A DNA stretch of 64,000 nucleotides, from positions 199,465 through 263,464 of the forward strand of contig CAYUQB010000001.1 in assembly GCA_964446735.1 (NCBI GenBank). Reading direction: 5' to 3'. This DNA is from an uncultured Candidatus Saccharibacteria bacterium (GTDB taxonomy: Bacteria; Patescibacteriota; Minisyncoccia; Phycocordibacterales; Phycocordibacteraceae). The position numbers were made by a program, and so were the translations under genes. This document shows positions 2,819 to 44,744 of this stretch, piece by piece; positions within the stretch are counted from its first letter, which is position 1; each line of letters starts with the position of its first letter. The notes under the pieces are model-generated. The model saw only the letters and a list, made by a program, of their open reading frames with translations. It was not told the DNA's origin and did no database searches.

Positions 2819-3139
2819 TTGTCACGGGAGGAACGGATGCAGACCCATCTGTATCACCACACGCTACGGGAATACGTGCGGAGTGTGATGCTCTTCTTCT
2901 ACTTCATGCTCAAAACGTACTTCTATGACGAAGAGGCGAGCGAGCTGATGCGAGGCAGTGCGTTTCTCTGCTTCTGGATCGCAGTCCTTGCCGCCATAGG
3001 CGCGGCCTTCGCCACACAGACGATCGGATACGGTATCGGGGTGATGATCGGGGCCGGTGTGGCGAGCTACCTCGTCGCTGGATCCATCCTCACCGTCATC
3101 TGGAGACTCGCCACCGGCTATCTCCCCTCTGACGAATAG
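2819..3139 (+). CDS. Hypothetical small membrane protein
   Basis: 106 aa with two hydrophobic helices (FLCFWIAVLAAIGAAF, GVMIGAGVASYLVAGSIL). No recognisable domain. Confidence 0.35.
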   Translation: MSREERMQTHLYHHTLREYVRSVMLFFYFMLKTYFYDEEASELMRGSAFLCFWIAVLAAIGAAFATQTIGYGIGVMIGAGVASYLVAGSILTVIWRLATGYLPSDE

Positions 3140-5258: not shown

Positions 5259-6416
5259 ATGAGCCTCCGCACCTCCCTTCGAAAACTCCGCAGAAAACTG
5301 ACCGGCTACACTCCGCTCGTTGAGGTTGGTATCTCGAAGGAGAATCTAATTTATAACCTTCGAGCGTACCAAGAACGGTATCCCGAGCTCCAATTTGCTC
5401 CGGTACTGAAATCAAATGCGTACGGTCATGATCTTGCGACCGTCGCCCGTATTCTCGAACGAGAACGAGTCGCATTCTTCATGGTCGATTCCTATTACGA
5501 AGCACGTCGCCTGCGTCGTGCCGGCATTCGTTCACGCATCTTAGTCATGGGGTATGTGCGTCCTGAGGACATCGCCAAGTCACGACTCCCCCATGTTGAT
5601 TTTGGTATCACCGACCTTGAGCAGCTGCGTCGACTCGCTGAATTGATTCGTCATCCCGTCCGCATTCACCTCAAGATCGATACGGGGATGCATCGGCAAG
5701 GAATTCCGATCCCACACCTTGGGTATGCAGAAGACATCATCAAGGGTGAGCCGCACCTTGAACTGGTCGGTATCTGCTCCCACTTTGCGGATGCTGACAG
5801 CGAAGCGGAGGGATTCACTCAGGGGCAGGTTGAGAACTGGAAGACGGTTGCAAAGGAGTTGCTACTCACCTTCCCCTCAATCGAGTACCGCCACATCGCC
5901 GCAACCAAGGGTGTGCGCTTCGCTGACGACACTGGCACCAACGTGGTGCGACTTGGTATTGGGCTATATGGCTTCGATACCTCACCGAGTCATGAGACCC
6001 CGCTCCGTCCCGTACTTGAGCTTCGTGCCCTCATTGCTTCAATCCGTGACATTAGTGTGGGGGAGTCCGTGGGCTACAACGCAACCTTCACGGCCGATCG
6101 TCCCATGAGGATAGCCACCGTTCCGGTCGGCTACTACGAAGGGATCGATCGTAGACTTTCAGACAAAGGAGCAATGCTGGTGAACGGCAGCACGTGCCCC
6201 ATCGTCGGTCGCATATCAATGAACATGTGTTCTATCGATGTCACCCATGTTCCCGATGTTGCAGTTGGGGATGAAGTGGTCGCAATCAGCCGCGATCCGG
6301 TTCAGCCAAATTCCATAAGTAACATCGCACGCACCGTGAGTAGTTCTGACTACCGAGAAAGCGAATATGTGATGTTGGTCCACGTCGCACCACATCTGGT
6401 GCGGGTTGTGGAGTAA
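5259..6416 (+). CDS. alr: Alanine racemase
   Basis: The PLP-lysine motif PVLKSNAYGHD is present and the fold extends through the C-terminal β-domain. The start was set to ATG 5259, because the track ORF 5139 overlaps tRNA-Leu. Confidence 0.85.
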   Translation: MSLRTSLRKLRRKLTGYTPLVEVGISKENLIYNLRAYQERYPELQFAPVLKSNAYGHDLATVARILERERVAFFMVDSYYEARRLRRAGIRSRILVMGYVRPEDIAKSRLPHVDFGITDLEQLRRLAELIRHPVRIHLKIDTGMHRQGIPIPHLGYAEDIIKGEPHLELVGICSHFADADSEAEGFTQGQVENWKTVAKELLLTFPSIEYRHIAATKGVRFADDTGTNVVRLGIGLYGFDTSPSHETPLRPVLELRALIASIRDISVGESVGYNATFTADRPMRIATVPVGYYEGIDRRLSDKGAMLVNGSTCPIVGRISMNMCSIDVTHVPDVAVGDEVVAISRDPVQPNSISNIARTVSSSDYRESEYVMLVHVAPHLVRVVE

Positions 6417-6543: not shown

Positions 6544-6625
6544 GCCGAGGTGGCGAAATTGGTAGACGCGCCTGCCTTAGGAGCAGGTTCCGCAAGGAAT
6601 GGAGGTTCGAGTCCTCTCCTCGGCA
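6544..6625 (+). tRNA. tRNA-Leu (TAG), type II
   Basis: Acceptor gccgagg/cctcggc. The anticodon stem is cctgc/gcagg with loop ctTAGga. The variable arm is long and the T-loop is ggttcgagtcc. Confidence 0.8.
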
Positions 6626-6628
6626 CAC

Positions 6629-6679
6629 TTGACAAAGTGTAAATAATTGTGTAATGTCAATGTCGGAAGGACATTGACA
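6629..6679 (+). promoter_or_regulatory. σ70-like promoter with an overlapping perfect 10-bp inverted repeat (operator-like)
   Basis: TTGACA (6629-6634), a 17-nt spacer, then TAATGT (6652-6657). Immediately after comes TGTCAATGTC-ggaag-GACATTGACA (6655-6679). It lies upstream of an AAGGAGG SD and the ATG at 6717. Confidence 0.45.
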
Positions 6680-6716
6680 TGTCCTAGCAACAACATCAGC
6701 TGGCTCAAGGAGGGCC

Positions 6717-7973
6717 ATGTTCATGAGCGACACCACAGACACCGACGGTACGGTCCCTCCGACCGGTCCGCCGGAGAATGGGGCCCCTCATGTGGTGGCC
6801 CCCGAAGATCCGACTTCCGGTCCGACGCAAGTGCAGAAGACCATGGAAGCCATCCTCGACAGCCCGCATCTCTACCGCAGGGTCGTGATGTGGACGCTGA
6901 TCGTCTATGGCGTCCTCACCGTCCTCTCGCTCGCCACGTGGTGGGTGATCCTCTTTCGCGTCGGAGAGCTCAAGGGCAACCTCGGGTTCTGGTTCCTGCT
7001 TCCAGTGCTGGTCCATCTGGGCCTGTCGCTGAAGGTGGTTTCCACCTCCGTCGTCGCCTGGTACTACACCTTCGAGATTCCGATCAAGAAGGCGAAGACC
7101 GGTCTTCGATTCGTCCCGGCCGGCGTCATGAACCTCGTGAAGCTCCCTCGGAACATGCAGGAGATCAACATTCCTGCTCACCAGGACAAGATCTTCTGGG
7201 AGGACGAGAAGACGCCCCTACCTAAGGGCCTCACTCGCCCGATCTTCATGTTCACGAGCTCTGCGGTTCGTGGGCGCGGGGGCAAGGTCAAGGGCCAGGC
7301 GCAACAGAGCGTCGGCGTTGGCTGGTTCGTCCTGTGGGGCATCACCCATGTCCCCAACTTCGAGGCGAACTCCAGATCGATCCGGGAAACGAACAGCCAG
7401 CTTCGGAAGATCTCCACGGCCGTTGTCAGCGAGAATATCGCCGCCAACGACCTGGATGCCCTTCTGACCAACCTGGCCCCGTTCAACAGCCACCTGGACG
7501 ATCGTCTGCGCGAGCGGACAGTCAACTGGGGGATCGAGATCTTCGAGGTTGGTCTGTTCAAGATCAACCCGTCGCATGAGTACGCGACGGCCCAGCGCGA
7601 CGCCGCCAAGGCGCCGTTCGAAGCCGAAGCGCTCGCGACTGCGGCGCGCCAAAAGGCCCAAGAACGGGTCTGGCTCGGGGAGGCCGATGGTAAGGCTGAA
7701 CAGGCCCGCGCCCGCGGACCCCTGGTCGGTCGAGCTGAAGGTCTCGAACGCATCGTGAGCAGTCTCAAACTGCGAGACGGTCTACCCGTCCTTGCTGCTG
7801 AGACGGCCCGCGACGCTATGCTAAATGCGGAATGGGGCGTACTCGGCGCCGAGGGCGGTATGCGTGATCTGATGGGCATGGCGAAGGGCGCTCACGCGGC
7901 TCTCCAGCCGCGTGATCGCCAACGCCGTACCAACAACCGCCAGCGGCGTCCACAGCCGCAGACGCAGACATAG
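6717..7973 (+). CDS. SPFH/band-7 (stomatin/HflK/C-like) domain membrane protein with a Pro-rich N-terminus and a basic C-terminal tail
   Basis: A TM helix (VMWTLIVYGVLTVLSLATWWVILF) is followed by a band-7 core (WGIEIFEVGLFKINPSHEYATAQRDAAKA, then a coiled coil). GC is about 65% by eye, against 50-55% in the flanks. Confidence 0.7.
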   Translation: MFMSDTTDTDGTVPPTGPPENGAPHVVAPEDPTSGPTQVQKTMEAILDSPHLYRRVVMWTLIVYGVLTVLSLATWWVILFRVGELKGNLGFWFLLPVLVHLGLSLKVVSTSVVAWYYTFEIPIKKAKTGLRFVPAGVMNLVKLPRNMQEINIPAHQDKIFWEDEKTPLPKGLTRPIFMFTSSAVRGRGGKVKGQAQQSVGVGWFVLWGITHVPNFEANSRSIRETNSQLRKISTAVVSENIAANDLDALLTNLAPFNSHLDDRLRERTVNWGIEIFEVGLFKINPSHEYATAQRDAAKAPFEAEALATAARQKAQERVWLGEADGKAEQARARGPLVGRAEGLERIVSSLKLRDGLPVLAAETARDAMLNAEWGVLGAEGGMRDLMGMAKGAHAALQPRDRQRRTNNRQRRPQPQTQT

Positions 7974-7982
7974 GAGAGCGGG

Positions 7983-8630
7983 ATGAATCCCTTTGAAAAC
8001 ATCATCCTCTACCTGCCCATCCTCGCGGTGCTCGTCATCATCGTGGGCATCGTGCTCTGGCGATCTTCGGATCGCGAGAAGCCGAAGCACTCCGATGAGA
8101 ACGGAGCAGACGAACAAGAGTCGAACCTTGACGCTCCCGCTACGGAGCATCATGCACCGACTCCGCACGTCGCTCCGGCGGCAGCAAGCCACGAACACCA
8201 CGAGGGCGGGGGACATCACTCCCGCATCCTCGAGGCGTTCCTCTGGTTCGCGCTGATCGCAGTGATCTGCGCGGCCGGGATCGGGGGCTGGCGGTGGCTC
8301 AACGCCCCCACCAAGCCCTACCGGGCCACACAGATCGAGGCTCTGGCACAACCAGAGCAGACGATCTGCCCTACGCTCGATGACACCAGTGGGGAAACCT
8401 CCTGCGTCTTCGACAAGGGGTACCGCATTCCCGTGAGCCTGCAAGGCACACAGATCTGCGGCAGCGGCCTCCTGGCCACGCTCCGCTCCTACTACTACGT
8501 GGAGCGCGAGAATGGCCCGGTCCTTGGACCGGTGGCCTGGACCGGCAGCGATGAAGACCGTGGGCGTGATAAGACGTTGCTCATCGGCGAAGGTAGCGGA
8601 AGCGTTACCTATCGCCCCTGCAGCAGCTAA
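7983..8630 (+). CDS. Hypothetical membrane protein with a His-rich acidic linker and a Cys-containing C-terminal domain
   Basis: 215 aa. An AGGAGAG SD lies 5 nt upstream. There are two TM helices and the stretch HHAPTPHVAPAAASHEHHEGGGHH. It is co-directional with the SPFH gene and 9 nt downstream of it. Confidence 0.5.
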   Translation: MNPFENIILYLPILAVLVIIVGIVLWRSSDREKPKHSDENGADEQESNLDAPATEHHAPTPHVAPAAASHEHHEGGGHHSRILEAFLWFALIAVICAAGIGGWRWLNAPTKPYRATQIEALAQPEQTICPTLDDTSGETSCVFDKGYRIPVSLQGTQICGSGLLATLRSYYYVERENGPVLGPVAWTGSDEDRGRDKTLLIGEGSGSVTYRPCSS

Positions 8631-16863: not shown

Positions 16864-17505
16864 TTATGGGGTTACCACTATTATAGCGCCGTCCTTGGCA
16901 GCTGCATCCTTTTTCTTCAGCGTCAGCTTATCAACCTTCTCCACCCCGTTACCCTCCTCCTTTAAATAGGTATCGAGTGCTTTGGGCTCGCCCATGCCGC
17001 TCCAGTGCATCGGGATGATGATGCGAGGCTCAAGTGTGACGGCGAGCTTCGCGGCCTTAGCTGGATCAAGTACCCCATCACCACCGACTGGCAGAAAAAG
17101 AATATCGATATCATCGATTGCTTCGCGCGCCTCCTGGGAAAGCATGGGGTCGTTCATGGCACCGAGGTGCACCAGGGTCATGCCTTCGAGCGTGACTGCG
17201 TACACCGTGTTCATCGCTTCTTCCTCTCCTTTGTTGAGTCCGTATTCGCTCTTGGTGAGGAATCCCTGAACCGTGACACCCGAATGTTCGTATTCGCCCG
17301 GCCCGGTAATGACAAAAGGCTCCGAGTTTCCAAAAGATACTTCCTCGATCCCGTTCATGTCAGGGTGGTTACGAGACACCAGGGCAATGTCGGCACCGAA
17401 ACGTACCGCAGGGAGTGTGCCTTTCTTTGAGATGGGATCGAAGACAAGTGTCAGGTCACCGAAGGTGACCTTAAAACACTGCCCGCCGTGGTGGGTAATC
17501 ACCAT
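16864..17505 (-). CDS. Metallo-β-lactamase-fold hydrolase (UPF0173-like)
   Basis: The start is at MVITHHGGQCFKV. The HxHxDH-type context THHGG...DPIS is present, with HLGAMN, ILFLPVGG and IPMHW further on. Confidence 0.65.
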   Translation of the reverse strand: MVITHHGGQCFKVTFGDLTLVFDPISKKGTLPAVRFGADIALVSRNHPDMNGIEEVSFGNSEPFVITGPGEYEHSGVTVQGFLTKSEYGLNKGEEEAMNTVYAVTLEGMTLVHLGAMNDPMLSQEAREAIDDIDILFLPVGGDGVLDPAKAAKLAVTLEPRIIIPMHWSGMGEPKALDTYLKEEGNGVEKVDKLTLKKKDAAAKDGAIIVVTP

Positions 17506-17635
17506 ATATAGGCAGATTATAGCATGAAAACAGTGCATCTAGAAGCCCTGGACGTTATGCACTCACTCCTCTAGCGCTCCTTCATGAAGATGGTATGGTG
17601 AGGCGGTCTGCGACTCCGCGAGGATGGTCAACGAC

Positions 17636-17845
17636 ATGAACCGCTGGGCTCCCGCCTGGCACAAACGAAGGAACGCTGTGATGCACAAGCATCGTCTCCA
17701 GGGCTTCTCGCCCCAGACCGTCGCTCTGACCACGGAAGCCATCGGCAAGTACGCGACCGGCGTCGCGGCGAAGAGCGCTTCCAACCTCAACAACCATTCC
17801 TACGGCTTCAACAGCGACCTGCTCGGCCACCTGGGCGCCGGCTGA
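17636..17845 (+). CDS. Hypothetical small protein in a GC-rich islet (low confidence)
   Basis: MNRWAPAWHKRRNAVMHKHRLQGFSPQTVALTTEAIGKYATGVAAKSASNLNNHSYGFNSDLLGHLGAG. GAGGA lies upstream. GC3 is high. Confidence 0.25.
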   Translation: MNRWAPAWHKRRNAVMHKHRLQGFSPQTVALTTEAIGKYATGVAAKSASNLNNHSYGFNSDLLGHLGAG

Positions 17846-18666
17846 TCCACAGCCCGGGACGGAGGCACGCAATCGTGTGAGTCTCGACTCACACCCTTGT
17901 GGACTTCCGTCCCGACGAGCCCTTCTTTCGTTTGACCACCACGCATTCCCCGCGTGGTGTTCTTGTTTTTAATGGAACGTATAGGGAAGTCGTGCTACAA
18001 TTCTCGCAATCGCCCACCCGGGCGATATTCACGTTCTAGTCGGAGGGCACATGCCGCCGTTTCAACATCAGCAGCCCATGACGGGCGTCATCCCCAGGTA
18101 CTTGGGGCCAACCGCCCCGAAGTCCTGCGAACGCGACCCGAATCGTCCGCCCGTGCATACGACGCCTCGCGCGTCCAAGCGCTAACGGAGCAGATTCGAT
18201 GGCCGAGCCGCAGGAACACGAAAGCACCTGGTCGCCGCCTCATTGGCAGGATCAGCTCGACACTGGCACCAGCCACCCGACGGACAACAGCGCCGAACGG
18301 TCCTGGCTGGAGCGTCGTGAGGACGATCCGACCACGCACTAGGAACAGGCGAGCGATAGCAGGGAAGTCGAGTGCCAACACGCGTCGACTATGGAGGAAA
18401 CGTCCCATCAACGAACCCCGTGCACGCTCGTCGGGGTGGAGGGCGCGTCGCCCTCCACCCAGTTCCTGGTTAGTTCTTTGTCCGCAGGTGCGGACGTCCA
18501 TCAGAAGATGAAGAAGGTCTGCCAAACGGCAGGCTTTATTTATTTTGCGCACTTCCCTCTCTATCTCGTCTTGACGTTATCCACAGGTGCTGGTATGGTA
18601 TTGCCGCTGACCGGAGTGCATTTCCACTTCGTCGACGTCAGCGAAGTTCCAACCGGAGAGACTCTC

Positions 18667-18837
18667 ATGGCCAAAGCGCCCAAAGAAGGCAAGAAGAAGT
18701 TCCCCCTCGGCAAGGTCCTGTTCGGCATCGCCGGCCTGGGCACGCTCGTCTTCCTGAACCGCAACCGCATCCTGGACGCCGTCGACGGCGCCTTGACCCT
18801 GGCCTTCGGCCCCCCGCCCGAGGATCGGGCGGTCTGA
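18667..18837 (+). CDS. Hypothetical 56-aa membrane peptide in a GC-rich islet
   Basis: GGAGAG SD 7 nt upstream. MAKAPKEGKKKFPLGKVLFGIAGLGTLVFLNRNRILDAVDGALTLAFGPPPEDRAV has one TM helix. Confidence 0.3.
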   Translation: MAKAPKEGKKKFPLGKVLFGIAGLGTLVFLNRNRILDAVDGALTLAFGPPPEDRAV

Positions 18838-19029
18838 TCCACCATCCGGAAGTACTTACTTCCCCGCCCCGGCTGCGCTTGCAGCTGGGGCTTCGGATTT
18901 TAATAGGACACACTAGTTATCCCTTGACAAGAAATGGCGTGCCACGATACGGTGCAGGAGCACCGGTACCCGTAGGGACGACCACCGGTCGTTCCTTGGG
19001 AACCATCCTCAAGCGAAGGGTTCAACGCG

Positions 19030-19347
<318 letters not shown>

Positions 19348-19564
19348 CGTCCGCCGGGCCGGTCTCCCGACGCTCTTCCTCCGAACGTGAGGCCGGTCTC
19401 CTCGAGGGGCCCCTGGGTGTTTGCGCAAGCAAATGCCTGGGGGCTCTTTCCATTTATATAGATTATTGCTATATTCCCTTTCGTAGAGCGGGTAGCAGTA
19501 CGGATGAGCTAACCCTGAAGTCGCGAGGCTTTAGTACTCTCCGGAACGTGCTCGCATCATATTC

Positions 19565-25198: not shown

Positions 25199-25750
25199 AT
25201 GAAGTTCCTCGAGAGCGCGTTCAAGGAAATTCTCACCTTCATCGTTCTCGCTATCATCATCGTCGTTCCGATTCGCCTCTTCGTCGCCCAGCCATTTGTT
25301 GTTGAAGGCGAGTCGATGCACCCCACGTTCGCAAGCGGCGACTATCTCATTGTTGATGAGCTAACGTATCGTTTCAGTACGCCCAAGCGCGGTGATGCCG
25401 TCGTCTTCCGTTACCCGAATGATCCGAATGTCTTCTATGTGAAGCGCATCATTGGTCTGCCGGGTGAGACCGTACACATCGATCATGGCCAGACCACTAT
25501 TACGAAGGCTGACGGGACAACCCTTACCCTTGATGAAGGATACGTAGTCGAGGAAGACGCGACCTACACTCAGGACACCACCCTTGGTGCCGATCAGTAC
25601 TTCGTCATGGGAGATAACCGGCCACGAAGTTCCGATTCGCGCATCTGGGGTCCGCTTCCAAAAAAGAACATTATGGGTCGTGCGTATATTCGCCTGCTGC
25701 CTCCGAGTGAGTTTGGAGTACTGCCCGGGGCCGTAGCACTACCACAATGA
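25199..25750 (+). CDS. lepB: Signal peptidase I
   Basis: The TM helix is followed by the Ser box GESMHPTF and the Lys box YVKRIIGLPGE, then GDNRPRSSDSRIWG. Confidence 0.8.
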   Translation: MKFLESAFKEILTFIVLAIIIVVPIRLFVAQPFVVEGESMHPTFASGDYLIVDELTYRFSTPKRGDAVVFRYPNDPNVFYVKRIIGLPGETVHIDHGQTTITKADGTTLTLDEGYVVEEDATYTQDTTLGADQYFVMGDNRPRSSDSRIWGPLPKKNIMGRAYIRLLPPSEFGVLPGAVALPQ

Positions 25751-26892
25751 GCGCCCAGTTGACTCCGTCGGATGTTCTGCGCCGCGCACACGCGGTGGGG
25801 ACCTATTACGGATTCTCTTCTCTCTCCTCCCTTACGATGCGTAAACGTGGCAGTGGATCACGTGCTCCGTACCCTGAGCAGTGCAATCTCGATGCGCTCG
25901 ACTCCTCAGCAAAAGAAGTTGCGGGACTCTTAAAGCAGGTGCGTGACGCCGGACTTACTCCATCGAGCCTGCAGCCTTTGTTTGTGTGGCACACGAACGC
26001 TGCACCGGGTCGTCCAGCACCCCGTTCTATTGTGGTGCAGTTCCATGCACTTGGTGTTGAACATGCGATTGCGGACGCAGTGCTCATTCGTGCCGTGCGT
26101 TCATTCATGCAGGACCTGGTGAAGCATGAGCCACGCCTTCGTCTTAACTCTATGGGCGACAAAGAGACGAGGAGCCGATTTGCGCGTGAGCTCACTGGAT
26201 TCTTCCGGAAGAATGGCACGACCCTTCCTCCCGACTGTGTTGCGTGTGCACGTACCGACGTCTTTGAGGCGGCAGAGAAACTCATTGCATGCGAAGGCAC
26301 TGAGTGCGAGATCCCCTCGCCTACCGATCATCTTTCAGAAGCAAGCCGCAAGCACTTCGAAGCGGTGCTCGAATACCTGGAAGCGACTGATACTCCCTAT
26401 GAACTCGCTCCCGATATTCTCTCCCGTGGAAACTCCTGGGGTGAGACCTGCTTTGAGATACTTGCCGACGATCGCATCCACGCATGGGGATCACGGTATC
26501 AGGAGCTATCTAAACCGTTCTTCAAGGGAAACTTCTCTTCCATAGGAGCGGTGGTGCGCATTACGCTTCCGGACCGTTCGGAGATAGCGCCTCTCAAGGA
26601 GCGAAGCAACCCCCGATTCGTATTCGTCCACATCGGCGACGAAGCAAAGCGAGAGAGTATGAAGATGGCTGATACGCTCCGGCATGCTCGCATTCCACTT
26701 ACTCAAGCAATCGGTATCGCGTCTCTGACGGAACAGATGCGCTTTGCAGATACGATCAACGCGCCATACCTTCTCATCATGGGGCGCAAAGAGGCGCTTG
26801 AGCGCTCGGTGATCCTCCGAGAACGGGCGACCCACGCAGAAACATTCATTCCGCTTGATTCCCTGGTGGATCGGTTGCGGGCGGTTGCCTAG
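25747..26892 (+). CDS. Histidyl-tRNA synthetase-like class II aaRS paralog (HisRS/HisZ-like, possibly degenerate)
   Basis: IVVQFHALGVE, LRLNSMGD, LSRGNSWGETCFEI and WGSRYQEL...GAVVRITL align to the HisRS core. The C-terminus is an anticodon-binding-like α/β domain (FVFVHIGDEA...APYLLIMG). It overlaps the lepB stop by 4 nt. Confidence 0.5.
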   Translation: MSAQLTPSDVLRRAHAVGTYYGFSSLSSLTMRKRGSGSRAPYPEQCNLDALDSSAKEVAGLLKQVRDAGLTPSSLQPLFVWHTNAAPGRPAPRSIVVQFHALGVEHAIADAVLIRAVRSFMQDLVKHEPRLRLNSMGDKETRSRFARELTGFFRKNGTTLPPDCVACARTDVFEAAEKLIACEGTECEIPSPTDHLSEASRKHFEAVLEYLEATDTPYELAPDILSRGNSWGETCFEILADDRIHAWGSRYQELSKPFFKGNFSSIGAVVRITLPDRSEIAPLKERSNPRFVFVHIGDEAKRESMKMADTLRHARIPLTQAIGIASLTEQMRFADTINAPYLLIMGRKEALERSVILRERATHAETFIPLDSLVDRLRAVA

Positions 26893-26911
26893 AGTCCCGC
26901 TCGTGCGGGAC

Positions 26912-26941
26912 TTGACTTTTTATAGAAAAGGTGTATATAAT
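26912..26941 (+). promoter_or_regulatory. σ70-like promoter overlapping the upstream terminator hairpin
   Basis: TTGACT (26912-26917), an 18-nt spacer, then TATAAT (26936-26941). The hairpin agtcccgc-tcgt-gcgggact (26893-26912) immediately follows the hisS-like stop. Confidence 0.45.
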
Positions 26942-26974
26942 ACGACTTGCATCAACTTGTTCTGCGAGGACAAC

Positions 26975-27337
26975 ATGTCAGCGATCGTCTTTGAGCGCAC
27001 CTTCAAATCCCTGGGTCTGCTGTGTCTCCTGGGCGGCCTCACGTTCTGGCTGCTCGGGTGGTGGATCGACGACTGGATCGTCGCCGAACGCTACCAGCTC
27101 CTGGCCCTGGGCGCGGGCTACACCACCGTCGGCCTCTCGACCCTGCTCTTCGCCTTCACGTGCGAGCACGACAACCGGTTCCTGTTCTACCTGACCTGCG
27201 CGATCGTCGCGTTCGCCATCGGCGCGGTCCTCTTCCTGAGGCCGTACAGCTTCGTCGAGCTGTTCGAGAGCTGGACAGCCCTCGTGCTCGGTGGGGTGCT
27301 GGCCATCGGCGGGATCGTCGTGATCACCGTAAAATAG
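26975..27337 (+). CDS. Hypothetical 4-TM membrane protein in a GC-rich cassette
   Basis: GAGGA SD 5 nt upstream of ATG. The sequence MSAIVFERTFKSLGLLCLLGGLTFWLLGWW... is about 60-65% GC with high GC3. Confidence 0.55.
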   Translation: MSAIVFERTFKSLGLLCLLGGLTFWLLGWWIDDWIVAERYQLLALGAGYTTVGLSTLLFAFTCEHDNRFLFYLTCAIVAFAIGAVLFLRPYSFVELFESWTALVLGGVLAIGGIVVITVK

Positions 27338-27357
27338 GCCACGCACCCGACCCGTTC

Positions 27358-27393
27358 AACGCCGCCCAGCCGAAAGGAGGGGCGGCGTTTTGA
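27358..27393 (+). terminator. Rho-independent terminator
   Basis: gccgccc-agccgaaaggag-gggcggc followed by gtttt. Confidence 0.55.
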
Positions 27394-27492
27394 ATTCCTT
27401 GAGAAATACGTCTCTACGCGAAACTTGACTTTATGCATAGTTATATAGCATAGTGATGGCCGTTTGAACCTGGGTTAAGGGAGACCCGAACG

Positions 27493-27834
27493 ATGCAAAA
27501 GATGACCGCCCTCCTGCTTCTTGCGGGAGTCGGCCTTGGTGGGGCCGCCTTCTACACCGGGAGGCTGACCGCCCCCGACCCCTCGTACGCGCTGTGGATC
27601 TATTCCCAGGCCGCGTACGCTTCCCCCTTGGGCCTCCCTCACTTCCAGCCGGAGGTGGGGACGAAGGAGGAAACCACCCGGGCTGCGCGTGCGTATGCCG
27701 CGGCGGACCAGAAGGATCTGAACGTCGTCCTGGTCTGCAAGATGCAGCCGGGACCTCACCAGGAGCTTCTGGACGCCTCTCCGTACATGGCCACCGACGG
27801 AGACGAGCGGTCCAGGAACTGCCAGAAGTTCTGA
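27493..27834 (+). CDS. Hypothetical secreted protein in a GC-rich cassette
   Basis: The promoter TTGACT (27425-27430) has a TA-rich -10 region. AAGGGAG SD is present. The signal peptide is MQKMTALLLLAGVGLGGAAFYTG. Confidence 0.5.
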   Translation: MQKMTALLLLAGVGLGGAAFYTGRLTAPDPSYALWIYSQAAYASPLGLPHFQPEVGTKEETTRAARAYAAADQKDLNVVLVCKMQPGPHQELLDASPYMATDGDERSRNCQKF

Positions 27835-27856
27835 GTTCTTCACCAAACCGTACCGA

Positions 27857-27890
27857 GGCGCAGCGATCCGGCTGCGCCTTCGCCATTTCT
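27857..27890 (+). terminator. Terminator-like hairpin
   Basis: ggcgcagc-gatccg-gctgcgcc followed by ttcgccatttc. Confidence 0.45.
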
Positions 27891-27928
27891 AGACAAGAAA
27901 GAAGGTTTTATGCTATCCTCCCCCTACT

Positions 27929-28189
27929 ATGCAGAACGCAACACGCGTTGAGGTCCGACGCGGCAAGAATGAAAGTGCCGCTTCGCTGATCCGCCGTTTC
28001 TCCCGCCGCGCGCAGGGACTTAACCTCGTGCGCATGATGAGGAAGCGCCGGTACTATACGCGTCAGAAATCCAAGAATGTGGAGCACGCCCGCGCGCTCG
28101 TCTCGCTCGCACGCCGCACCGAGTACAACCAGCTCGTGAAGCTCGGAAAGATCGACCCGGCTGCCCGCCGCACCAAGGGGCGCAAGTAG
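27929..28189 (+). CDS. rpsU: 30S ribosomal protein S21
   Basis: 86 aa and basic. The S21-like motif is LIRRFSRRAQ...RKRRYYTRQKSKNVE. The hairpin aagcccc-gtag-ggggctctttt follows. Confidence 0.65.
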   Translation: MQNATRVEVRRGKNESAASLIRRFSRRAQGLNLVRMMRKRRYYTRQKSKNVEHARALVSLARRTEYNQLVKLGKIDPAARRTKGRK

Positions 28190-28250: not shown

Positions 28251-28673
28251 ATGAGCGAAATACCCAATTGCTTCTATCGCATCAGCGTAAAGGCGCTGGT
28301 GCTTAATGAAGCACGCGATAAGTTCCTTATCGTAAAAGAGGAGAATGGTAAATGGGAGCTTCCTGGTGGCGGACTTGATTGGTATGCAACGCCACAGGAA
28401 GATCTCGCGCGTGAAATACAAGAAGAGATGGGTCTTGAAATGACATGGGTGGCCTCACACCCGTCCTACTTCCTCACGGATATGAGTTACGCTCCTGCAA
28501 AGTCGAAAGCAAATGTTCTGTACGAAGCTACACTCGCGTCTCTCGACTTCACTCCTTCTGATGAATGCGTTGAGGTACGGTTTGTAAGCGCGGAGGAAGC
28601 GAAAGCACTCGACCTCTTCGGAAATCTTCGAATATTTTGTGACCTCTTTGATCCGGCACAGCACACGCCCTGA
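28251..28673 (+). CDS. NUDIX hydrolase
   Basis: Canonical Nudix box GGGLDWYATPQEDLAREIQEEMGL (GX5EX7REUXEEXGU). Confidence 0.8.
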   Translation: MSEIPNCFYRISVKALVLNEARDKFLIVKEENGKWELPGGGLDWYATPQEDLAREIQEEMGLEMTWVASHPSYFLTDMSYAPAKSKANVLYEATLASLDFTPSDECVEVRFVSAEEAKALDLFGNLRIFCDLFDPAQHTP

Positions 28674-30230: not shown

Positions 30231-30321
30231 AGCGCGAAACGAATTGACAAGGTGTCAATATTTGCGTAATTGCTGACCCTGGTATCATGAAGCCACCATA
30301 TTTGGCGGCTAATATCAACGT

Positions 30322-36302: not shown

Positions 36303-36716
36303 TTGGTCGGTATGATCTTCATTAAATTCGTCACCGCCGTGGCCGCACTTCTGCTGGTCTGGCGCCTCTTCGCACTCTGGCATGCAGGCCGGGAGCTCAA
36401 GCGGTGTCCCCGCTACTCCTTTTTCCTTGCCTATCACCGCCGGGTGCTCTGGCAAGTCGTGGGACTGACCCTGGGTGCAGTCGCCCTGATCGAGATCGCC
36501 ATCCAGGTGAGCGCGGACCCGTCCGTCGTGAATGGGTGGCTCCTCGCCTTCCATCTCTCGTTCGTCGGCCTACTGGTCATGGTCTTCTTCGCCGTGCTGC
36601 TGCGCTTCAACGGGCTCCGGAGCCCGGCGTGGCACGGGCGCTTCGCCTACTCGTTCCTGGCGCTCTACGGTGTCGTGATCGCGTCGGGACTGCCGCTCCT
36701 CTATCAGCTCCACTGA
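36303..36716 (+). CDS. Hypothetical membrane protein in a GC-rich islet
   Basis: 137 aa with four TM helices. GC is about 62% by eye. Confidence 0.4.
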   Translation: MVGMIFIKFVTAVAALLLVWRLFALWHAGRELKRCPRYSFFLAYHRRVLWQVVGLTLGAVALIEIAIQVSADPSVVNGWLLAFHLSFVGLLVMVFFAVLLRFNGLRSPAWHGRFAYSFLALYGVVIASGLPLLYQLH

Positions 36717-36827
36717 GCGGGAGACTGCCCGGTGACGGATACGGACCACCAGCCCTGCTGGTGGTCTTCCGTTTCTCCTCCCCATCCTCTATTGTGGCAG
36801 AGGGCCGAATATGGCTGGGAGGTTGAA

Positions 36828-37394
36828 ATGCAGGACGACCTGGTACTTCGAGTAACGTTCGCGGTGTCGGTGGCGACTGTGTGGGTGGCTCAGAGCCTAA
36901 TTCGGAGCGCCTACACCACCACGCACCGAGTCGAGCGCAGTGTAAAAGATCGCACGACGTTCGTGCTCCTGGTGTGGGTCGCGAGCATTAGTGCGTACGC
37001 GATCGGATTCAACGGATACGGCGTTCCACTCCCCCTCTGGGTGCGGTGGATCGGCATCGGCGCGATGCTTGCGTGCATCCCGCTATCCCTGTGGATCCAC
37101 CACGCACTCGGCGTGTTCTTTTCGCCGAAACTGCAGGTCGTCGCCGGACATGAGCTGGTGCAAACCGGTCCGTACCGACTGGTTCGTCATCCCATGTACG
37201 CGACGCTCTTCATCTGCATGCTCGGCACAAGCCTGGCATCTGCAGACCTCGTCATCGGGGGTGCTTCCCTCGCTGGCATCATCGCGATGCTCGTCAGGCT
37301 TCAGAAGGAGGAGCGGATGCTCGAGAATACGTTCGGTGAAGCATACCGGACGTATCAGAGGACGACGGGTGCAATCATCCCGCGCTTGGGGTAA
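36828..37394 (+). CDS. Isoprenylcysteine carboxyl methyltransferase / PEMT-family membrane methyltransferase
   Basis: GGGAGG SD 6 nt upstream of ATG. The ICMT signature GPYRLVRHPMY...EERMLENTFGEAYRTY is present. Confidence 0.65.
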   Translation: MQDDLVLRVTFAVSVATVWVAQSLIRSAYTTTHRVERSVKDRTTFVLLVWVASISAYAIGFNGYGVPLPLWVRWIGIGAMLACIPLSLWIHHALGVFFSPKLQVVAGHELVQTGPYRLVRHPMYATLFICMLGTSLASADLVIGGASLAGIIAMLVRLQKEERMLENTFGEAYRTYQRTTGAIIPRLG

Positions 37395-38200: not shown

Positions 38201-38725
38201 CTAGGCGATGCCGAGTTCCGGATGCCTCAGGTGTGCGGCCTCCTCATGCATGACCTCGAACTCCTCGACCTTGACGTCGTAGAGCGAGCCCAGGAGTGAG
38301 AAGACGGCGCGCATGCGGCGATTGCCATCGCCTCCGCCTCCACTGAAGTCGGTACAGTCACCACACAAGTAGACGCTGGAGGCGGCCCAGGCTTCGAAGT
38401 AGCAGTAGTGCTCCCGACGGCGATCGGGGTTGTGTTGGACGTTGAAGATGCGCAGACGCTTGAGGCATTCCTTGCTCGGGTCGGCTGTGAGTGCCCACCG
38501 CAGATGTGCGATCATCGCATCAACTGATTGAGCGGTGCTGTGCGTCAGAAACGCACAGTTGTCCCCGAAACGACTGTCGGATAGATCGAGACCGAAGGGG
38601 TGGGCCCTCATCGGCCTACGTTCTCCAATGAATCCGACAACATCGTTGTGCGTGCCGTTCTTCGAGTTCATGAGTTCGAAGAGGCCCGAAACCTGGTCGG
38701 TTTCAACAAACGTAAGGCTTCGCAT
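38201..38725 (-). CDS. Hypothetical protein
   Basis: 174 aa and soluble. It contains HYCYFEAWAASSVYLCGDCTDF. No family recognised. Confidence 0.4.
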   Translation of the reverse strand: MRSLTFVETDQVSGLFELMNSKNGTHNDVVGFIGERRPMRAHPFGLDLSDSRFGDNCAFLTHSTAQSVDAMIAHLRWALTADPSKECLKRLRIFNVQHNPDRRREHYCYFEAWAASSVYLCGDCTDFSGGGGDGNRRMRAVFSLLGSLYDVKVEEFEVMHEEAAHLRHPELGIA

Positions 38726-38804
38726 GTGATGCTCCCGTGCGAGTGAGATGGATGGTTCGAAAACCTGAGATTACAATAACACTATAGTATACAAAAGTCA
38801 ATTG

Positions 38805-38876
38805 TGACCCCACGGGGAATCGAACCCCGATTTCCTGCGTGAAAGGCGGGCGTCCTAACCGTTAGACGATGGGGCC
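38805..38876 (-). tRNA. tRNA-Glu (TTC)
   Basis: The reverse complement reads ggccccatcgtctaacggttaggacgcccgcctTTCacgcaggaaatcggggttcgattccccgtggggtca. It resembles bacterial tRNA-Glu. The anticodon stem has one C·A mismatch. Confidence 0.7.
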
Positions 38877-42572: not shown

Positions 42573-44744
42573 ATGAACGATAAGTTCAAGCAGCCCTATG
42601 ACTTCGCGGCTACCGAGCCGCGTATTTATGAAGCCTGGGAACAGAGCGGGTATTTCAACCCGGATAACCTCCCTGGGGACCGACCTGAATCATTCACAGT
42701 TACCCTTCCTCCGCCGAATGTAACGGGTGTGCTCCACCTCGGGCACGCATACGAAGACTCGCTCCAGGACACGGTGGTCCGCTACCAACGTATGCGCGGA
42801 AAGAAAACCCTTTGGGTTCCTGGGACGGACTCTGCAGCAATTGCGACCCAGTCACGAGTCGAGAAGAACATTCAGAGAGATGAGGGAAAGAGCCGTCACG
42901 ACTTGGGACGCGATGAACTCGTGGCTCGGGTGAAGGAATTCGCTCGGGCAAGCGAGAGCACGATTCTCTCGCAAGTACGACGTATGGGAGCCTCACTTGA
43001 CTGGTCACGCTACGCATACACGCTCGATGAGGAGCGCACGAATGCCGTGAAGACCGCATTCATTCGTATGTATGAAGCTGGTCTTATTTATCGAGGCAAT
43101 CGTATCGTGAACTGGGATCCAAAGGGACAAACAACCATTTCGGATGATGAAATTGTGCACGAGGAGCGGCAGGCGAAACTCTATACCTTCCGCTACAGCA
43201 AAGACTTCCCCATCTCCGTTGCCACCACGCGTCTTGAGACAAAAGTTGGTGACGTTGCCGTTGCCGTGCATCCTGACGATCCTCGCTACAAGGAATTCAT
43301 CGGCAAAGAATACGATGCGGTGTTCGTAGATGTACCCATCCACATACAAGTGGTCGCTGATAAAGAAGTGGATCCCGAGTTCGGTACAGGAGCACTCGGG
43401 GTAACACCCGCGCATAGCATGATCGACTGGGAGATTGCCGAGCGACACAACCTCCCGAAAGATAAAATCGTAATCAACACCTACGCAAAGATGAGCGTCG
43501 AGGGCTCGCTCGCAGGTCTGAAAGCAACAGATGCCCGCGAAGCCGTAGCCGCGTGGCTCCGTTCCGAGGGTCTTATGGAGAAGGAGGAAGATATCTCACA
43601 AAATGTTGCGACTGCAGAGCGTACGGGAGGCATTATTGAGCCGTTGCCTCTGCTCCAGTGGTTCGTTGCGGTAGAAAAACCATTTGTTCTTCCTCACTCT
43701 GAAATAACGGGTATTGAGTCTGGCGCAACAGTCACTCTGAAACACATCATGCGTGCTGCAGTTGAACGTGGCGATGTCTCTATGCCCCAGGAGAATTTCC
43801 GTAAGACCTATATGCACTGGATTGAGAACCTCCATGATTGGTGTATCAGCCGCCAGATCTGGTTTGGTCATCGCATTCCAGTTTGGTACCGAGGGAACGA
43901 GATCCACTGCGGCGAGAGCGCTCCGGAAGGTGACGGATGGGAGCAGGACCCAGACGTACTTGATACATGGTTCTCTTCTGCACTCTGGACGTTCTCCACG
44001 CTTGGCTGGCCAAGAAAGTCAGAAGACCTCGCATCGTTCCATCCCACATCCTTCATGTCACCTGCGTATGAGATTCTCTCGCTCTGGGTCTCGCGCATGA
44101 TTCTTATGAGCGGCTTCCATCTTGGTCAGGTTCCCTTCCGCACCGTCATGATTCACGGTCTCGTGCGTGACAAGAAGGGACAGAAGTTTAGTAAGTCGCT
44201 TGGCAATGGAGCTGACCCACTCGAGATGATAGATAAGTACGGTACCGATGCGCTTCGTATGGGTCTGTTAGTCGGTACCGCTATTGGAAACGATATCCGC
44301 TTCGACGAGGACAAAGTGAAGGGCTATAAGCACTTTGCGAACAAGCTCTGGAACATTACGCGCTTCGTGCTCGAAAACACGGAAGGTGCAGATCCCCATG
44401 CAACGCTCACCGACGCAGACCAAGCGCTCAGAGCTGAGCTTGATGCATTGGCGAAAGACGTGACGACGGATCTCGATGCATACCGCATTTACCTTGCTGC
44501 GGAAAAGCTCTACCACTACGCATGGGATCGACTTGCGGCAGAAATTCTCGAGGAGTCAAAGTCGATCTTCCAAGGAGCGGATGCAGCTGCTATTGCTTCG
44601 CGCCACGCACTCCTCTTGTCTCTTCTTTCAGATACCGTAAAGCTCCTCCACCCATTCATGCCGTTTGTCACCGAAGAGATTTATCAGTCTCTTCCCACGA
44701 AATCGACTGACCTTCTTATGGTAGAGGCCTGGCCTGTTGCATAG
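42573..44744 (+). CDS. valS: Valine-tRNA ligase (short form without the C-terminal coiled-coil)
   Basis: PPPNVTGVLHLGHA carries the HIGH motif and KFSKSLGN is the KMSKS motif. An editing domain is also present. Confidence 0.9.
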   Translation: MNDKFKQPYDFAATEPRIYEAWEQSGYFNPDNLPGDRPESFTVTLPPPNVTGVLHLGHAYEDSLQDTVVRYQRMRGKKTLWVPGTDSAAIATQSRVEKNIQRDEGKSRHDLGRDELVARVKEFARASESTILSQVRRMGASLDWSRYAYTLDEERTNAVKTAFIRMYEAGLIYRGNRIVNWDPKGQTTISDDEIVHEERQAKLYTFRYSKDFPISVATTRLETKVGDVAVAVHPDDPRYKEFIGKEYDAVFVDVPIHIQVVADKEVDPEFGTGALGVTPAHSMIDWEIAERHNLPKDKIVINTYAKMSVEGSLAGLKATDAREAVAAWLRSEGLMEKEEDISQNVATAERTGGIIEPLPLLQWFVAVEKPFVLPHSEITGIESGATVTLKHIMRAAVERGDVSMPQENFRKTYMHWIENLHDWCISRQIWFGHRIPVWYRGNEIHCGESAPEGDGWEQDPDVLDTWFSSALWTFSTLGWPRKSEDLASFHPTSFMSPAYEILSLWVSRMILMSGFHLGQVPFRTVMIHGLVRDKKGQKFSKSLGNGADPLEMIDKYGTDALRMGLLVGTAIGNDIRFDEDKVKGYKHFANKLWNITRFVLENTEGADPHATLTDADQALRAELDALAKDVTTDLDAYRIYLAAEKLYHYAWDRLAAEILEESKSIFQGADAAAIASRHALLLSLLSDTVKLLHPFMPFVTEEIYQSLPTKSTDLLMVEAWPVA

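Follow-up and report, generated by a model that had tools for sequence, protein, structure and literature searches.

The interval at 26893-27928 of the 64,000-nucleotide (nt) stretch analysed here (the window, from contig CAYUQB010000001.1) raises the question of how two small GC-rich genes came to stand between a hisS-like gene and rpsU. An earlier note had read the two as mobile gene cassettes, each with its own promoter and terminator. The interval lies on a chromosome of the Paceibacteria (Patescibacteria or candidate phyla radiation, CPR) and is probably a lineage-wide hypervariable slot, which holds two moron-like accessory units and whose content is exchanged by recombination. It is a gene-turnover hotspot of a familiar kind and not an integron-type cassette array; literature searches found the slot described nowhere.

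Two gene units in a variable slot

The slot and its flanking genes carry the following features. Lengths are given in amino acids (aa); TM denotes transmembrane and SD a Shine-Dalgarno box, both SD boxes being read from the sequence.

25747-26892, + strand: hisS-like gene, 381 aa, conserved left flank of the slot; stop codon at 26890-26892
26892-26913, + strand: GC hairpin, the terminator of the hisS-like gene; -16.9 kcal/mol, z = -5.1
26912-26941, + strand: unit 1 promoter, with TTGACT (26912-26917), an 18-nt spacer and TATAAT (26936-26941), within the conserved block TTGACTTTTTATAGAAAAGGTGTATATAAT
26966-26970, + strand: SD of orfA, GAGGA, 4 nt upstream of the ATG
26975-27337, + strand: orfA, a 120-aa membrane protein with four TM helices; orphan
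27354-27395, + strand: intrinsic terminator of orfA; -27.5 kcal/mol, z = -4.1
27423-27454, + strand: unit 2 promoter, with ACTTGACTTT (27423-27432) including the -35 box TTGACT (27425-27430), an 18-nt spacer and the -10 box CATAGT (27449-27454)
27477-27483, + strand: SD of orfB, AAGGGAG
27493-27834, + strand: orfB, 113 aa; predicted signal peptide or signal anchor at the N-terminus, two Cys residues; orphan
27854-27882, + strand: terminator-like hairpin 3´ of orfB; -20.9 kcal/mol, z = -3.9
27890-27919, + strand: rpsU promoter, with TAGACA, an 18-nt spacer and TG-n-TATCCT, and 9 nt between its end and the ATG; bounds the slot on the right
27929-28189, + strand: rpsU (S21), conserved right flank of the slot; Pfam and TIGR S21 matches are weak

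Every element that the earlier note had listed for the two units, from promoter and SD to open reading frame (ORF) and terminator, was found in place, and the GC content of the units (0.64-0.65 vs a background of ~0.55) is as described there. Unit 1 opens with the GC hairpin, the 3´ arm of which, together with the following T-run, overlaps the -35 box. With a score of 11/12, the unit 1 promoter is the best sigma-70 match on both strands of the entire window. The four-TM character proposed for orfA is borne out by four hydrophobic helices in the sequence and by the AlphaFold2 (AF2) model, which also has four helices (predicted local distance difference test, pLDDT, of 67). Perfect 10-bp arms (27358-27367/27380-27389) followed by TTTT form the orfA terminator. 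The 5´ leaders in the region exhibit no significant structure, and an Rfam scan of the region returned no family.

The orfB product combines a single N-terminal hydrophobic segment with a downstream polar domain that contains the two Cys residues, and its structure model gave no informative fold match. From the hydrophobic segment alone, the protein, which the earlier note had called secreted, is predicted to be exported or anchored. In the orfB promoter, the spacer and the -10 box are overlapped by a direct repeat, GCATAGT(T/G)AT, which occurs twice at 27435-27457 with 13-nt spacing. This repeat could be a regulator binding site, or it could be due to chance.

The slot was compared across 84 loci obtained from GTDB representatives and additional look-ups, 79 of which are non-redundant; the representatives scanned are genomes other than that of the window. 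The block lepB–hisS-like–rpsU–ybeY–ftsA is rigid in the 79 Paceibacteria loci except at the junction between the hisS-like gene and rpsU. Distances of >300 nt occur at this junction in 63% of the loci (range 32-1560 nt) and at the lepB to hisS-like, rpsU to ybeY, ybeY to ftsA and ftsA to ftsZ junctions in 0%, 4%, 0% and 31%, respectively. The ftsA to ftsZ distance (30231-30321 in the window) reaches 1319 nt in relatives, which suggests a second, weaker variable site in the block; the estimate is possibly inflated by variable protein termini.

Among the 79 loci, the slot is empty in 29 (37%), holds a + strand ORF with at least two TM segments, the criterion used for a TM occupant, in 31, and has other content in 19. 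The TM ORFs comprise 2-5 TM segments and 78-175 aa, and at least 28 sequence families are represented among 37 slot TM proteins. Eight genomes with a hisS-like protein 80-85% identical to that of the window show six different slot states. The same interval thus carries different genes among related genomes, and the neighbouring junctions are invariant, as is characteristic of a hotspot. The slot states of individual genomes are as follows.

L001 and L085, nearest relatives: empty, with the hisS-like gene and rpsU 31-69 nt apart
L086: a 128-aa four-TM gene
L087, L088 and L002: a 126-159-aa soluble family, with an additional 172-aa lipoprotein-like gene in L002
L007: a 287-aa minus-strand gene and a 3-TM gene
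L008: a 2-TM gene
Window: orfA and orfB

The empty slots of L001 and L085 agree with the earlier description of the units as separate elements of atypical composition placed between the hisS-like gene and rpsU. The second slot gene of L002 (7849-8367) has an LSAC lipobox and a GC content at third codon positions (GC3) of 0.84, and it stands behind acTTGACtctttatataaataggtgtactat; its 172-aa product is the nearest analogue of orfB.

Both orfA and orfB are orphans. Word-indexed searches of 5.8e9 proteins returned self-matches only, as did an exhaustive phmmer search of 1.84 billion representatives with orfB. Neither protein belongs to a Pfam, NCBIfam, PHROGs or PADLOC family, and neither has relatives among IMG/VR viral contigs. 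By tblastn, rpsU was recovered in 78/84 loci, and no match to orfA, orfB or the NUDIX gene downstream of rpsU was found in any of the 84. Searches with phmmer and family hidden Markov models (HMMs) did not connect orfA to any slot TM family.

Promoters and coding sequences of the two units

The 10-mer ACTTGACTTT has two exact copies in the window, one per unit and each at the -35 position, and the two units agree at 13/15 bases of the common stretch around this box. The earlier note had pointed to the 10-mer as shared by the two cassettes and had named a generic promoter consensus as the alternative. This alternative holds for the motif class but not for the exact 10-mer, which does not precede any other gene of the window. 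The combination of TTGAC(A/T), a T/A-rich spacer and a TATAAT-like box is also located before ftsZ (30244), lepB (25163) and tRNA-Phe (47207), and the same promoter type is present in two further islands of the window and before slot genes in ~25 relatives. A total of 31 promoter-like TTGAC sites in slots yield the consensus a-c-TTGAC-(A/T)-t-t-t. In relatives, 29 promoters of this type were compared: AC is found upstream in 31% and TTT downstream in 17%; the full 10-mer, with its five extra shared bases, is expected in ~5% of promoters and was seen in 1/29. Because ~5% is expected within the promoter class, the shared 10-mer is weak evidence (p ~0.05) for a special link between unit 1 and unit 2. 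An exact 10-mer repeat within ~1 kb is also not improbable, as other exact 10-mers recur in the same stretch. The 10-mer therefore marks no special family of cassettes, and ACTTGACTTT is mostly the extended -35 consensus of the ordinary promoter type of the lineage.

The heptamer CTTGACW (W = A/T) is three-fold under-represented in the window (5 sites vs 14.8 ± 3.9 expected), which is consistent with a functional motif that is avoided elsewhere. The sites at 6628, 26911 and 27424 are intergenic and lie just upstream of GC3-rich accessory genes; the others are at 18923, in a GC-rich stretch at 18-19 kb, and at 42996, inside a gene.

The exact 10-mer occurs once in the 84 loci, within the L017 slot, and the promoter flanks of the window and L017 are clearly homologous (window GGGACTTGACTTTTTATAGAAAAGGTGTATATAATAC; L017 GGCACTTGACTTTTATATAGAATGGGTGTATAGTATATAC). 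In L017, a GC hairpin is located upstream of the promoter, with a GC-rich four-TM ORF, a terminator and rpsU downstream. Homologues of the unit 1 promoter were located in L017 (6382-6420), L086 (from 4503) and L040/L043 (from 6148), and the hairpin with the TTGAC(A/T)TTT…GGTGTATA promoter can be aligned across the window, L086, L017, L040/43 and L008. In L086, L040, L043 and L008, the stop codon is followed by a 7-8-bp GC hairpin with a 4-nt loop and then by TTGAC(A/T)TTT…G(G/A)GTATA, and the stem changes among these four loci keep the pairing. Because this order of hairpin and promoter recurs in relatives with pairing-preserving changes, the unit 1 promoter is a resident module fused to the hisS-like terminator, conserved in position, and not part of a mobile cassette as had been proposed. 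As judged from the aligned sequences, the 3´ arm and U-run of the terminator also serve as the -35 region in this module, and the gene behind the module is not conserved. L017 has an additional 39-aa hydrophobic mini-ORF (6220-6339) ahead of the conserved module, with its own promoter (TTGAAA, 17-nt spacer, TATATA).

A metagenome scan with the pattern TTGACWTTTT-N6-12-GGTGTATA-N0-1-WAT was uninformative on the module. It returned at least 120 contigs with a median GC of 0.42, gut metagenomes included, none of which encodes relatives of the hisS-like protein, rpsU, orfA or orfB; the pattern is a generic strong bacterial promoter.

At the right boundary of the slot, a block consisting of c-T(A/G)GACA, a 17-18-nt spacer and TGCTAT(T/C)CT is conserved upstream of rpsU in ~45 loci (e.g. 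L085, L002, L087 and L017). In most relatives, only 8-11 nt separate the end of this block from the rpsU ATG, and an SD is absent, which makes a leaderless or near-leaderless S21 mRNA probable. Where the hisS-like gene and rpsU are separated by a 30-nt gap, the final hisS-like codons (GTTGCC-stop) supply the rpsU -35 box.

The coding sequences of the two units differ in composition from the core genes. The GC contents at codon positions 1, 2 and 3 are 0.58, 0.41 and 0.92 in orfA and 0.65, 0.48 and 0.83 in orfB; GC3 lies at 0.48-0.66 in the window core genes, and no gene of the window exceeds orfA in this respect. In the antisense and alternative frames that overlap the two ORFs, GC peaks at position 1 or 2. 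Since the three-periodic pattern GC3 >> GC1 > GC2 is found only in the called frames, orfA and orfB are true coding frames. The leucine codons CTG and CTC are used at 13:9 in orfA and 6:2 in orfB. This gives a CTG/(CTG+CTC) share of 0.59 and 0.75 vs 0.27 in the window core genes (pooled binomial p 3e-5), and rpsU also prefers CTC. In the core genes of 80 loci, the CTG share has a median of 0.17 and a maximum of 0.37, even at a GC3 of up to 0.88. This codon usage therefore points to import of the orfA and orfB coding sequences rather than to an exaggerated native bias.

Relatives show a related pattern. Their slot TM genes have a mean GC3 excess of +0.13, which is positive in 91%, and a pooled CTG share of 0.45, and the non-TM slot genes lack this high-GC3/CTG signature. 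The combination of high GC3 and CTG-rich leucine usage is family-wide in slot TM genes and is matched by no host core genome; it may reflect a common foreign pool or class-specific selection. Other sources of the composition were considered. Hydrophobicity was rejected as the cause of high GC3, as native genes with 6-15 TM segments have a GC3 of 0.55-0.65 and core-like codon usage. GC-rich relatives are weakened as donors, because hosts with a GC3 of at least 0.85 still favour CTC over CTG. Co-transfer of rpsU was also considered, the window rpsU being closest to that of GC-rich L007 (91.9% vs 86-88% for others), a protein of 86 aa that is too short for a conclusion.

Origin of the slot content

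The reading that we favour can be put together as follows. The slot would be bounded by the hisS-like terminator and the near-leaderless rpsU promoter and would hold two monocistronic units, each with a predicted lineage-typical sigma-70 promoter, its own SD and its own hairpin terminator. In unit 1, the resident terminator/promoter module would have been kept and the coding sequence behind it swapped. Turnover may proceed by recombination in the conserved flanks with no site-specific recombinase, and the foreign-looking codon usage would indicate import, not in-place divergence. The products, a membrane protein with four helices and a small protein that is exported or anchored, are predicted to be envelope components. 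Speculatively, they could serve envelope variation towards hosts or phages, by analogy with phage morons and surface-protein islands.

Several observations weigh against this reading. The role in envelope variation is an analogy and not a result. The unit 2 promoter matches the sigma-70 consensus at 9/12 positions, a level that is also reached by chance, and the hairpin at 27854-27882 has a poor U-tract (TTCGCCATTTC). Import is argued from composition alone, as the databases searched hold no donor and no homologue of either protein. The GC3 of rpsU is 0.79 and exceeds the core GC3 in 92% of loci, and part of the GC3 signal could be tied to expression level. Finally, cross-locus homologues of the slot TM proteins were found in the slot in 18/18 matches and in 0 cases elsewhere in the ±5 kb flanks, which also fits vertical descent.

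The last two points are those expected if the content evolved rapidly in place, with an ancestral small membrane-protein gene diverging past recognition, orfB arising or diverging alongside it, and GC3 raised by codon selection on strongly expressed genes. The conserved terminator/promoter module, the small + strand TM ORF in 31/50 occupied slots and the strength of the unit 1 promoter also favour this course. In addition, one 2-TM family spans L008, L013, L030, L034 and L048, in which host core GC3 ranges over 0.40-0.81. Its GC3 follows the host in L048 (0.49, host 0.40) and L013 (0.77, host 0.81) but not in L008 (0.81, host 0.59) or L030 (0.59, host 0.71). Against evolution in place, the slot TM proteins differ in their number of TM segments (2-5) and in length (78-175 aa), and HMMs fail to link the families, of which there are at least 28; the empty 37% of loci include the nearest relatives, and other occupants are soluble proteins or minus-strand genes. 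Moreover, the CTG preference of orfA and orfB is opposite to the CTC preference of rpsU and the core genes and is no exaggeration of the same bias. We consider in-place evolution unlikely on balance, though of appreciable weight. An extension of the exchange reading, which we regard as rather doubtful, is that the slot is a selected 'expression socket', in which a terminator and a strong promoter are kept beside rpsU for swapping small envelope-protein genes from a shared, GC3-rich, CTG-using pool that differs in composition from every host core genome of the family, giving rapid surface variation with no recombinase. The source of such a pool might be phage-borne or host-cell DNA.

The adjacency of a small exported two-Cys protein and a small four-TM protein, at a variable and strain-specific locus of the kind typical for such pairs, could also indicate a secreted toxin or bacteriocin (orfB) with a membrane immunity protein (orfA). 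However, orfA and orfB are separate transcription units with a strong terminator between them, no toxin or immunity family was matched in Pfam, NCBIfam or PADLOC, and the orfB model lacks an informative fold match. The TM gene of relatives usually stands alone, and the L002 lipoprotein has no TM partner, which makes a toxin/immunity pair improbable. An artefactual origin of the ORFs, as chance open frames in a GC-rich spacer, would accord with the long ORFs in several frames here, e.g. 26978-27346 and 27431-27886 on the minus strand, and with the lack of homologues anywhere searched. This explanation has very little probability given the codon periodicity confined to the called frames, the SD boxes, promoters and terminators that all suit the + strand, and the same architecture with small TM ORFs in 31 relatives.

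Integron-type or other recombinase-mobilised cassettes would account for compact single-gene modules of atypical GC between genes that are adjacent in relatives, and to this extent the mobile-cassette view of the earlier note stands: modularity and insertion of the units are upheld, a likeness to integrons is not. The note itself had reported neither an attC-like site nor an integrase, and both absences were confirmed. At 26851-27960, one RYYYAAC and no GTTRRRY were found on the + strand, and no R''/R' (RYYYAAC…GTTRRRY) pair 40-150 nt apart occurs on either strand. None of the ORFs from ~14 kb to 38 kb, which encode housekeeping or unrelated domains or no Pfam domain, is an integrase. Within ~10 kb of the slot and in the syntenic loci, neither an integrase nor a transposase was found, and no phage gene lies near the slot. 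The inverted repeats of the region are short terminator stems with T-runs and not attC-like. Integron cassettes are typically promoterless and expressed from the common promoter Pc, whereas a separate TTGACT -35 box and -10 box precede the gene of each unit here, and the unit 1 promoter is a resident orthologous element. The integron-type reading is largely refuted by these findings and is highly improbable. Exchange by recombination in the slot is the probable explanation.

Setting of the slot and its meaning

The gene order around the slot is pth / hydrolase / lepB / hisS-like / [slot] / rpsU / NUDIX / ybeY / ftsA / ftsZ, and the order in the window neighbourhood is syntenic with that of relatives. 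The source contig measures 516,752 bp. Within ~10 kb, the neighbours are gyrA, an MBL-fold protein, S1, a histidine kinase, pth, the hydrolase and lepB, together with NUDIX, ybeY, ftsA, ftsZ, GNAT and a trxB-like gene. The hisS-like start overlaps lepB by 4 nt. The only Pfam match of the hisS-like protein is HGTP_anticodon, the anticodon-binding domain, and its score against TIGR00442 hisS (89 bits) is under the 287-bit cutoff. Its homologues, with annotations to Parcubacteria, Paceibacteria or Patescibacteria, number more than 1000 and reach identities of up to 85%. Across Paceibacteria, the protein has a mean column identity of 75% and many invariant residues.

Other accessory genes are present in the window. 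The NUDIX hydrolase gene at 28251-28673, between rpsU and ybeY, has a GC3 of 0.48, below the core, and occurs only in this genome among 77 loci. It has a weak PADLOC match to the candidate defence family PDC-S07 (E = 2e-9), which is probably generic NUDIX similarity. Two GC3-rich islands, at 6544-8630 and 38201-38876, start directly after tRNA genes with a TTGAC promoter that abuts the tRNA 3´ end. In the former, tRNA-Leu(tag) ends at 6626 and TTGACA begins at 6629; an SPFH/Band-7 gene and an unknown gene of 215 aa come next. In the latter, tRNA-Glu (minus strand) starts at 38804, with AATTGACTTTT at 38801 and then a 174-aa unknown gene; this promoter is the only one-mismatch copy of the 10-mer located before a gene. 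At 36303-37394, a gene for a 137-aa four-TM orphan (GC3 0.83) precedes one for an ICMT/PEMT-type methyltransferase (GC3 0.73), and a 2-TM ORF of 100-106 aa (GC3 0.76) occupies 2819-3139; neither small membrane protein resembles orfA by phmmer. The stretch at 17500-19500, between the MBL-fold gene and the S1 gene, is GC-rich (0.61) and has overlapping ORFs in several frames with no clear gene call. Relatives hold different small genes at its position, and it is possibly another variable region.

The closest comparison for the two units is with phage morons, which stand as additional, independent units of promoter, gene and terminator among conserved phage genes and often encode small membrane proteins, HK97 gp15 being the founding example (PMC3594210). 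As in morons, each unit has its own promoter and terminator around a single gene, as predicted from the sequence, and the composition differs from the neighbours (GC3 0.92/0.83 vs 0.48-0.66); the genes are absent at the same position in relatives, 29/79 slots being empty. In contrast to morons, the flanks are conserved cellular core genes (lepB, hisS-like, rpsU, ybeY and ftsA/Z) and no PHROGs or viral-contig (IMG/VR) matches were obtained; the unit 1 promoter is resident and conserved and not part of the insert. Integron cassettes share with the units compact single-gene modules in tandem and atypical composition; they differ in having attC, IntI and a common Pc.

The slot as a whole compares with chromosomal hotspots of horizontal gene transfer, as reportedly described by Oliveira, Touchon, Cury and Rocha in 2017, and with the replacement 'flexible genomic islands' reportedly proposed by Rodriguez-Valera and colleagues. 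It shares with these a fixed position between syntenic core genes, different and mostly orphan content per genome, atypical composition, the absence of a dedicated recombinase and a bias towards envelope proteins. It differs in being very small (0-1.6 kb, one to three genes) and in keeping a conserved terminator-promoter module while the ORF changes. In addition, accessory genes usually tend to be AT-rich, whereas those of the slot have more GC than the core.

At present, the finding neatly illustrates a known phenomenon and reveals no new mechanism. CPR/Patescibacteria are thought to live attached to host cells, and their surface proteins and routes of gene flow are barely known. In this setting, the slot is a fixed and easily located site at which small membrane or exported proteins turn over between close relatives, and its content can be compared across hundreds of metagenome-assembled genomes. 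It also gives a family-level view of expression signals in an uncultured lineage, namely TTGAC(A/T), a 17-18-nt spacer, a TATAAT-like box and a near-leaderless rpsU. Should the codon signature of the slot genes stem from a shared mobile pool, it would indicate a path by which these organisms exchange genes.

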